Part shown: in pieces, positions 2,564 through 2,911 of the stretch
How the letters are laid out: every line of letters starts with the position of its first letter
Numbering within the stretch: the stretch's first letter is position 1
Virus record (IMG/VR): IMGVR_UViG_2657245461_000004
Origin: a virus
Lineage: Duplodnaviria > Heunggongvirae > Uroviricota > Caudoviricetes
Reading direction: 5' to 3' (one strand)
DNA length: 4,538 nucleotides
Notes under the pieces: generated by a model
Told to the model about the DNA's origin: nothing
What the model saw: only the letters and a program-made list of their open reading frames with translations
Databases searched by the model: none
Made by a program: the position numbers and the translations under genes

Positions 2564-2638
2564 TGGAGCGGGCAGCGGGAATCGAACCCGCATCATCAGC
2601 TTGGAAGGCTGAGGTAATAGCCATTATACGATGCCCGC
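2564..2638 (-). tRNA. tRNA-Gly (anticodon UCC)
   Basis: The reverse complement folds as a canonical cloverleaf: acceptor GCGGGCA/UGCCCGC, anticodon stem UCAGC/GCUGA, loop CUUCCAA, T-loop UUCGAUU, 3' CCA encoded. Appears the same as E. coli tRNA-Gly2 from memory (unverified). Confidence 0.85.
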
Positions 2639-2641
2639 ATA

Positions 2642-2717
2642 TGGTGCCGACTACCGGAATCGAACTGGTGACCTACTGATTACAAGTCAGTTGCTCTACC
2701 TACTGAGCCAAGTCGGC
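2642..2717 (-). tRNA. tRNA-Thr (anticodon UGU)
   Basis: Reverse complement GCCGACUUGGCUCAGUAGGUAGAGCAACUGACUUGUAAUCAGUAGGUCACCAGUUCGAUUCCGGUAGUCGGCACCA. 7-bp acceptor stem, anticodon stem ACUGA/UCAGU, loop CUUGUAA (U33, A37), T-loop UUCGAUU, CCA encoded. One T-stem mismatch. Confidence 0.85.
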
Positions 2718-2719
2718 AC

Positions 2720-2796
2720 TGGACCGCCACCGGGGACTCGAACCTCGCACACTCAACTTAAAGGGTTGACGCTCTTTCCTGATGAGCTAGTGGCGG
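2720..2796 (-). tRNA. atypical tRNA-like gene, anticodon UUU (Lys) if functional; possible pseudo-tRNA
   Basis: Reverse complement CCGCCACUAGCUCAUCAGGAAAGAGCGUCAACCCUUUAAGUUGAGUGUGCGAGGUUCGAGUCCCCGGUGGCGGUCCA folds as a cloverleaf with a perfect 7-bp acceptor stem and anticodon stem UCAAC/GUUGA. Non-canonical features: loop CCUUUAA has C at position 33, the 5' end is C1, the discriminator is U73, and the T-stem has an A-C mismatch. Confidence 0.5.
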
Positions 2797-2797
2797 T

Positions 2798-2873
2798 TGG
2801 TGGCCCTTGCTGGATTTGAACCAGCGACCTGGCGATTATGAGTCGCTCGCTCTCACCACTGAGCTAAAGGGCC
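2798..2873 (-). tRNA. tRNA with anticodon CAU, most similar to tRNA-Ile2 (lysidine-modified, AUA decoder); Met not excluded
   Basis: Reverse complement GGCCCUUUAGCUCAGUGGUGAGAGCGAGCGACUCAUAAUCGCCAGGUCGCUGGUUCAAAUCCAGCAAGGGCCACCA. Canonical cloverleaf, anticodon loop CUCAUAA. About 90% like E. coli ileX as I recall it, with C4-G69 and C5-G68 acceptor pairs. Same position as ileZ in Stx-type phages. Confidence 0.8.
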
Positions 2874-2882
2874 GGGCGCAGG

Positions 2883-2911
2883 ATAATAACGTTACGAAAT
2901 CAATGTTGCAA
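2883..2911 (-). promoter_or_regulatory. candidate sigma70 promoter for the tRNA cluster
   Basis: On the minus strand: TTGCAA (2911..2906), 17-nt spacer, TATTAT (2888..2883). The first tRNA 5' end (2873) lies about 10 nt downstream of the -10. Sequence-pattern prediction only. Confidence 0.45.

Follow-up and report, generated by a model that had tools for sequence, protein, structure and literature searches.

Why do temperate phages carry tRNA genes, and what do their sets of tRNAs supply? The question is raised by a 4,538-nucleotide (nt) stretch of Caudoviricetes DNA (IMG/VR record IMGVR_UViG_2657245461_000004; hereafter the window), part of an Escherichia coli lambdoid prophage in which a block of four tRNA genes separates the lysis genes from the gene for Q, the activator of late genes. 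Judged by its alignments, the block is the ileZ-argN-argO cassette of Shiga toxin (Stx) phages, with argN remodelled and argO replaced by copies derived from the host genes thrU and glyT. We consider it moderately likely that the whole is a mobile tRNA cassette which supplies minor tRNAs from the head of the late operon in a lambdoid prophage of Escherichia/Shigella. The cassette itself is common, is annotated in databases and belongs to a class already known. The remodelled argN, termed here the Lys-like gene, is the sole element that is at all new.

Four tRNA genes and their relatives

The tRNA genes of the window were detected with ARAGORN and with the Rfam covariance model RF00005, which has a gathering score of 29 bits:

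2798-2873, minus strand: tRNA with anticodon CAU, Ile2-type (ARAGORN; Rfam 72.5 bits; labelled tRNA-Ile by the Prokaryotic Genome Annotation Pipeline, PGAP)
2720-2796, minus strand: tRNA with anticodon UUU, Lys-like (ARAGORN; Rfam 44.4 bits, the lowest score of the four)
2642-2717, minus strand: tRNA-Thr with anticodon UGU (ARAGORN; Rfam 72.5 bits)
2564-2638, minus strand: tRNA-Gly with anticodon UCC (ARAGORN; Rfam 64.9 bits)

Across the window ARAGORN calls exactly these four genes, and every RF00005 score exceeds the gathering score (E-values from 4.5e-15 to 2.5e-7), so the four are tRNA genes far beyond chance. The genes are separated by spacers of 1, 2 and 3 nt, and each of them encodes its CCA end. 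An earlier note, made from the letters of the window, had described four tRNAs with these anticodons, packed 1-3 nt apart and placed downstream of the terminator tR' between Q and the lysis genes. The gene calls agree with that description throughout, Q, pR', tR', holin and lysozyme having been located around the cluster, and its coordinates are all correct.

The four tRNAs were aligned to the tRNA genes of E. coli K-12 and of Stx phages. The tRNA-Gly is identical to K-12 glyT (75/75), as the earlier note had suspected, and the tRNA-Thr matches thrU at 75 of 76 positions, the sole change being A9G; the anticodon arms of both copies are identical to those of the host. Because their sequences are the host's, the Thr and Gly copies would act only by gene dosage. 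Host identity had been thought unusual for a phage-borne Gly copy, and this did not hold: it is the norm of the family, with Gly equal to glyT in 63 of 98 copies and Thr equal to thrU in 69 of 102 copies in the IMG/VR loci. A compensatory change, C6-G67 to U6-A67, is present in 11 Gly copies.

The CAU tRNA is identical to Stx-phage ileZ (76/76) and matches host ileY at 70/76 and ileX at 68/76. It has an ileX/ileY-like body, and its acceptor stem, GGCCCUU/AAGGGCC, is the same as that of ileY; C4-G69 and C5-G68 are determinants for TilS. By these sequence features the CAU tRNA is of the Ile2 (lysidine) type, and lysidine modification and charging by IleRS are predicted.

The first 220 nt of the cassette, comprising its promoter, ileZ and the second tRNA gene, are approximately 91% identical to many Stx phage records. 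This homology starts at the -35 element of the cassette promoter and stops precisely at the CCA end of the second tRNA, beyond which Stx and PPompW phages have argO and the window has Thr-Gly. Retrieval through the T-arm of the second tRNA gave 120 IMG/VR loci, with the order Ile2, Lys-like, Thr, Gly in 93 (and 9 incomplete variants of it), Ile2, Lys-like, Arg-UCU in 12, and Ile2, Arg-UCG, Arg-UCU in 6. The composition had earlier been set apart from the Ile/Arg/Arg composition of Stx phages. The set of genes does differ, but the promoter, the ileZ gene and the argN-like second gene are those of the Stx cassette itself.

The whole cluster is present in 576 of 5,426 complete E. coli genomes (>10%), annotated there as tRNA-Ile, -Lys, -Thr and -Gly, and also in three phage isolates. 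The Lys-like gene occurs in 798 genomes, with copies of at least 99% identity in 279 and of 95-99% identity in 474. When one genome per GTDB species was searched, its anticodon arm was found only in E. coli and Shigella flexneri.

The closest relative of the UUU tRNA is the argN (UCG) of Stx2a_F349, with 65 of 77 positions identical; the second-best match is thrU (52/77), and the top four matches include no Lys gene. Relative to argN, the anticodon loop has changed from CUUCGAA (Arg UCG) to CCUUUAA (UUU), with U33 becoming C. All 12 differences keep the cloverleaf: three convert G·U pairs to Watson-Crick pairs, G30-C40 becomes A30-U40, and the others fall in loops. In an alignment of 16 distinct members of the argN/Lys-like family, 95.2% of cells are in standard pairs, compared with 29-53% in slid controls, and four pairs show changes on both sides. 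Because of this pairing and these two-sided changes, the shared scaffold is, on comparative evidence, a genuine tRNA fold.

Like tRNA-Lys(UUU), the tRNA has UUU in a 7-nt loop followed by A37; it lacks U33, A73 and a Lys-type body. Its departures from a normal tRNA-Lys are C33, U73, C1-G72 and an A51·C63 mismatch. U33 is near-universal in tRNAs, and A73 and the anticodon are determinants for LysRS. The Lys-like tRNA probably accepts lysine poorly if at all. The earlier label 'UUU-like' was right about the anticodon, and its reserve has been given substance, as the tRNA is truly non-canonical and some annotators miss it. PGAP gives the label tRNA-Lys only to near-exact copies, and the depositors of two phage genomes left the gene uncalled.

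The loop CCUUUAA is nevertheless kept in 110 of 113 Lys-like copies. The anticodon stem (UCAAC/GUUGA) differs from that of host tRNA-Lys (GUUGA/UCAAU) at five of five pairs and has no CNG motifs. GUUGA is the 3' strand in the Lys-like stem and the 5' strand in the host's, so that the two stems are strand-swapped versions of one another, possibly by coincidence. Decayed alleles include a 1-nt deletion in the D-stem (the PPompW type) and a common U8C/C4U/C11U allele, neither of which PGAP annotates.

Individual copies vary further. Most of the Lys-like anticodon arm is lost in Stx2c phage PV98-693 (L133:395-485). The copy of an E. coli O139:H1 strain (L134:395-485) has seven substitutions, among them A51-U63, which repairs the T-stem, and a change of a conserved D-loop G; CCUUUAA is kept. 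The acceptor pair G3·U70 is present in Stx2a_F349 argN (L002:2632-2708) and in the PPompW Lys-like gene (L003:2645-2720), and the window allele has G3-C70. G3·U70 is the major alanine-identity determinant for AlaRS.

Transcription and codon supply

On the minus strand, the order of elements is DUF968, RusA, Q, a pR'-like promoter, tR', the cassette promoter, the tRNAs, a leader, holin, an open reading frame (ORF) of unknown function, lysozyme and Rz. The elements that bear on transcription of the cassette are as follows:

2911-2883, minus strand: cassette promoter, TTGCAA-17-TATTAT, sigma-70 type, 9 of 12 consensus matches, 9 nt upstream of the first tRNA
3072-3761, minus strand: late antiterminator Q gene, 229 amino acids (Pfam PF06323 Phage_antiter_Q, E 3.7e-91)
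3083-3055, minus strand: pR'-like late promoter, TTGCAA-17-TATATT, 9 of 12 in a consensus scan, overlapping the end of Q
approximately 2976-3004, minus strand: tR' intrinsic terminator, GC stem 2985-3000, U6 tract 2984-2979

A consensus match alone does not make the cassette promoter significant, as 3 such sites were found against 1.3 expected, and comparative conservation was used instead. In 116 of 124 related loci, TTGC at -35 and TATTAT at -10 are kept, as are the 17-nt gap between the hexamers and the position 9 nt upstream of the tRNA. Across these loci the spacer exists in 12 sequence versions, some of them mutually unrelated, and the DNA upstream of the -35 element belongs to several unrelated families. 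Hexamers that are kept while the spacer diverges form a good phylogenetic footprint of what would be a working promoter, and the candidate that had been placed at 2883-2911 is borne out by this conservation. After its -10 element lies the GC-rich CCTGCGCCC (CTGC block). The best-scoring promoter-like site, TCGGCA-16-TATAAT at 2650-2623 on the minus strand (10/12), lies inside the Thr/Gly genes; it was dismissed, its TATAAT being the D-arm of glyT and present in the host gene too. Homology of the cassette promoter to the ileX and ileY promoters was also considered; there is a loose resemblance to that of ileX only, and no claim is made.

The pR'-like site is also present in the FDAARGOS_944 prophage, and we infer from its position that it acts as the late promoter. 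In the terminator scan, tR' has a CCCGC/GCGGG stem lengthened by A-U pairs and followed by the U6 tract, and its hairpin forms in the minimum-free-energy fold of 2965-3050 on the minus strand (-24 kcal/mol, z -2.76). The pR' transcript up to tR' would be approximately 70 nt. Two small RNAs of Salmonella prophages, isrK (22.5 bits, E 0.088) and isrJ (23 bits, E 0.47), match the region of this transcript, 2979-3052 on the minus strand, weakly and below the Rfam threshold.

In a lysogen, the cassette's own promoter would drive it constitutively. Once the prophage is induced, Q-modified RNA polymerase starting at pR' would read through tR' and add to cassette transcription; from this arrangement, dual expression can reasonably be inferred. 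RNase P would cut the polycistronic precursor at each tRNA 5' end, and the 1-3-nt trailers would be trimmed. Ile2 would read AUA after lysidine modification, Thr-UGU would read ACA/ACG, and Gly-UCC would read GGA/GGG. These three products would add to single-copy, low-abundance host tRNAs and so speed translation of phage and prophage genes. The second gene, an argN with a rewritten anticodon loop and a kept fold, would stand outside codon supply and appears to be decaying in many lineages.

Codon usage was compared between carrier phages (phage vB_EcoS-689R5 and the FDAARGOS_944 prophage; 17,272 codons) and 42 K-12 genes (14,748 codons), as shares among synonymous codons with odds ratios (OR):

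AUA (Ile): 14.7% in the phages, 4.2% in K-12; OR 4.0, p 2e-14
ACA (Thr): 24.0% in the phages, 10.2% in K-12; OR 2.8
GGA (Gly): 20.9% in the phages, 7.8% in K-12; OR 3.1
AAA (Lys): 72.6% in the phages, 73.9% in K-12; OR 0.93, p 0.57

This comparison had been suggested together with the original description of the cluster, and AUA, ACA and GGA prove to be over-used approximately 3-4-fold in the carrier phages. The enrichment is found in early and late phage genes alike; the late genes are no richer in the three codons than the early ones, which the lysogen expresses. Because AUA, ACA and GGA are over-used and AAA is not, minor-tRNA supply fits, loosely, three of the four genes and not the Lys-like one.

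Points against codon supply and other explanations

Several observations weigh against a minor-tRNA supply cassette as the explanation of the whole block. The strongest enrichment is that of AGA and AGG (OR 5-7), although the window cassette has lost the Arg-UCU tRNA; codon matching is loose for this reason. Rare-codon enrichment is generic in these phages, and the matching could be incidental. The Lys-like gene has a nucleotide diversity of 0.0335, which is 4-7x that of its neighbours (0.0045-0.0079) and also above the 0.0136 of the non-coding DNA downstream. The terminator scan found no convincing intrinsic terminator from the cassette promoter to the holin gene. The sole candidate, at approximately 2172-2203 on the minus strand (CCGC-UUUU-GCGG and a U-run), is weak in the intact equivalent locus (L001) and weaker, being degraded, in the window. 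Supply from a constitutive promoter therefore does not account for how lysogens keep this transcription out of the lysis genes.

One alternative is a counter-defence cassette. The nucleases P2 Old, PARIS AriB and PrrC belong to competing elements, and P2 Old is the classic excluder of lambda. The cassette might replace host tRNAs that such anticodon-arm nucleases cut, the Lys-like gene providing a nuclease-insensitive tRNA-Lys, an explanation that we regard as unlikely. In its favour, P2 Old cleaves tRNA-Thr(UGU) first and tRNA-Lys(UUU) too, and phage Thr-UGU tRNAs rescue cells (PMC12445682). AriB of PARIS cleaves tRNA-Lys at positions 40/41, and cells are rescued from P2 Old and PARIS AriB alike by phage tRNAs whose anticodon stems are altered (PMC12445682, PMC11464382); the coliphage tRNAs tested numbered 245 (PMC12445682). 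The Lys-like anticodon stem is unlike the host's at every pair and without CNG motifs, its loop is nearly invariant, and AAA usage offers no codon-supply reason for the gene. The Thr and Gly copies, however, keep the host anticodon arms, and over-expressed host ThrU gives little or no protection from P2 Old (PMC12445682). Evasion of P2 Old by the Thr copy was rejected as the principal explanation on these two grounds. The Lys-like gene is, moreover, the most polymorphic part of the cassette, many copies having the D-stem deletion or U8C and then going uncalled by PGAP; its anticodon arm is missing from some Stx2c phages, and C33 and U73 point to poor decoding and poor charging.

The same polymorphism suits an explanation without any purpose, which we likewise hold to be unlikely: that the cassette is mostly passive cargo, maintained through linkage to the Q/lysis junction, which is a known insertion hotspot, with Thr and Gly held to the host sequence through gene conversion by the chromosome and the Lys-like gene a dying argN pseudogene. 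Repeated disabling variants of the highly diverse Lys-like gene, mosaic swapping of tRNAs at the Q/lysis site among lambdoid phages and the host-identical Thr/Gly sequences in about two thirds of copies are all in keeping with it. Against it stand the very low diversity of Ile2, Thr and Gly and their compensatory changes (as in the 11 Gly copies), promoter hexamers that are kept while the spacer diverges, the preservation of pairing in 12 of 12 argN-to-Lys-like differences, and the presence of the cassette in more than 10% of complete E. coli genomes.

We hold it quite unlikely that an Arg(UCG) tRNA was remodelled to a UUU reader with C33 and a stem different from the host's, which E. coli lambdoid prophages keep either as a substitute for tRNA-Lys that escapes PARIS AriB, PrrC and P2 Old or for tuning a Lys-dependent A-AAA-AAG frameshift in tail-chaperone genes. 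The end of the tail assembly chaperone gene in vB_EcoS-689R5 (L130:30222-30233), GTT AAA AAA AAG TAG, contains A AAA AAG, a heptamer of the type at which tRNA-Lys-dependent -1 frameshifting takes place. The lambda frameshift heptamer G GGA AAG is absent from the tail-chaperone regions examined. The link between the Lys-like gene and tail-chaperone frameshifting was set aside as too speculative.

Lysogenic conversion, in which the host would be the chief beneficiary because a doubled dosage of the minor Ile2, Thr4 and Gly2 tRNAs helps to express horizontally acquired AT-rich genes, is in our estimate very unlikely. The cassette's own Q-independent promoter, the single-copy state of thrU and glyT in the K-12 region examined and the richness of early prophage genes in AUA, ACA and GGA speak for it; by sequence alone it is inseparable from minor-tRNA supply to the phage.

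Genomic setting and comparison with known systems

Downstream of the cassette, the window holds the following features:

2113-2563, minus strand: leader between tRNA-Gly and the holin gene, approximately 450 nt, enlarged by a duplicate of 148 bp across an N run
1897-2112, minus strand: holin S, P21 type (Pfam PF04971, E 1.4e-35), the first lysis gene past the cassette
1055-1684, minus strand: 209-amino-acid ORF between holin and lysozyme (PHROG 1085, unknown function, E 1e-73; no Pfam match)
456-989, minus strand: lysozyme, followed by the Rz gene

The 209-amino-acid ORF is a moron-like gene within the lysis cassette. The intact equivalent of the leader (L001:20375-20672, 298 nt) folds into three long hairpins at -94.8 kcal/mol (z -5.1), with none of 200 shuffles as stable, and nothing in Rfam matches it. 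The leader may be a module for processing or termination, or else an RNA that has gone unrecognised.

Two N runs interrupt the window, at 1874-1884 and 2392-2401, each flanked by near-duplicates. In the leader, 2244-2391 and 2402-2550 differ by 3 mismatches in 148 (98%); in the holin gene, 1686-1873 and 1896-2083 are approximately 88% identical, which yields a second, truncated, X-containing holin ORF at 1688-1897. The duplicates have the look of scaffolding artefacts in which allelic contigs of related prophages were joined, because they flank the N runs, coverage of the window by complete E. coli genomes reaches 83% at most, and the intact tRNA-Gly-to-holin intergenic region in other genomes measures approximately 290 nt. 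The tRNA cluster is untouched by them.

For the cassette itself, the analysis mainly confirms a correct annotation; lambdoid tRNA genes behind Q are a well-known class. The cassette is of modest value as an experiment set up by nature on the reasons for which temperate phages have tRNAs: a single conserved promoter would drive exchangeable sets (Arg/Arg, Lys-like/Arg, Lys-like/Thr/Gly), the host-copied Thr and Gly genes would act by dosage only, and the Lys-like gene with its rewritten loop exists in intact and decayed forms.

The cassette Thr and Gly genes match thrU and glyT of the host thrU-tyrU-glyT-thrT-tufB operon and keep their order. Unlike the operon, the cassette has no tyrU or thrT, its flanks and promoter are not homologous to the host's, and the gap from thrU to glyT, which in the host comprises 8 nt, tyrU and 116 nt, is 3 nt. 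Capture of thrU and glyT through deletion of tyrU was considered and rejected: the host spacers and flanks share no residual homology with the cassette, and the route of capture therefore cannot be shown.

The nuclease-resistant phage tRNAs, T5 tRNA-Lys against PARIS and coliphage tRNA-Thr-UGU against P2 Old, share the anticodons UUU and UGU with the cassette. The anticodon stem of T5 tRNA-Lys is unlike that of the host, as in the Lys-like tRNA. T5 tRNA-Lys keeps U33 and a Lys-type body, whereas the Lys-like tRNA has C33, U73 and an Arg-type body, and in contrast to the protective coliphage tRNA-Thr-UGU the Thr copy of the window carries the host's sensitive arm. Were the Lys-like tRNA functional and nuclease-resistant, tRNA counter-defence would extend from large virulent phages to common prophages.

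Among lambdoid phages, tRNA genes downstream of Q are known in SfI, Sf6, ST64T and phage 21, and the tRNA-Thr(UGU) of SfI has been matched to the over-use of ACA by the phage (PMC3636060). The tRNA-Asn(GUU)/tRNA-Thr(UGU) sets of these phages occupy the same hotspot and include a Thr-UGU tRNA; by description, the only level at which they are set apart here, they are a different set, with no Ile2 or argN-type tRNA reported. A literature search for ileZ/argN/argO and for the present tRNA combination in lambdoid phages found nothing specific. In Stx2 phages, a single 'Met' tRNA and two for Arg have been reported (PMC7946995).

The closest known system is the Stx ileZ-argN-argO cassette, as in 933W, Stx2a_F349 and phage 86. 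It too follows Q and tR', with the same promoter hexamers and spacing and an identical ileZ (76/76), and its second gene shares the scaffold of the Lys-like gene (65/77 with F349 argN, 80.5% with 933W argN). Stx phages have two Arg tRNAs (UCG, UCU) after ileZ and stx downstream, whereas the window has UUU, Thr and Gly tRNAs and then lysis genes. The form intermediate between the two, Ile2, Lys-like and argO, is that of the PPompW prophages.

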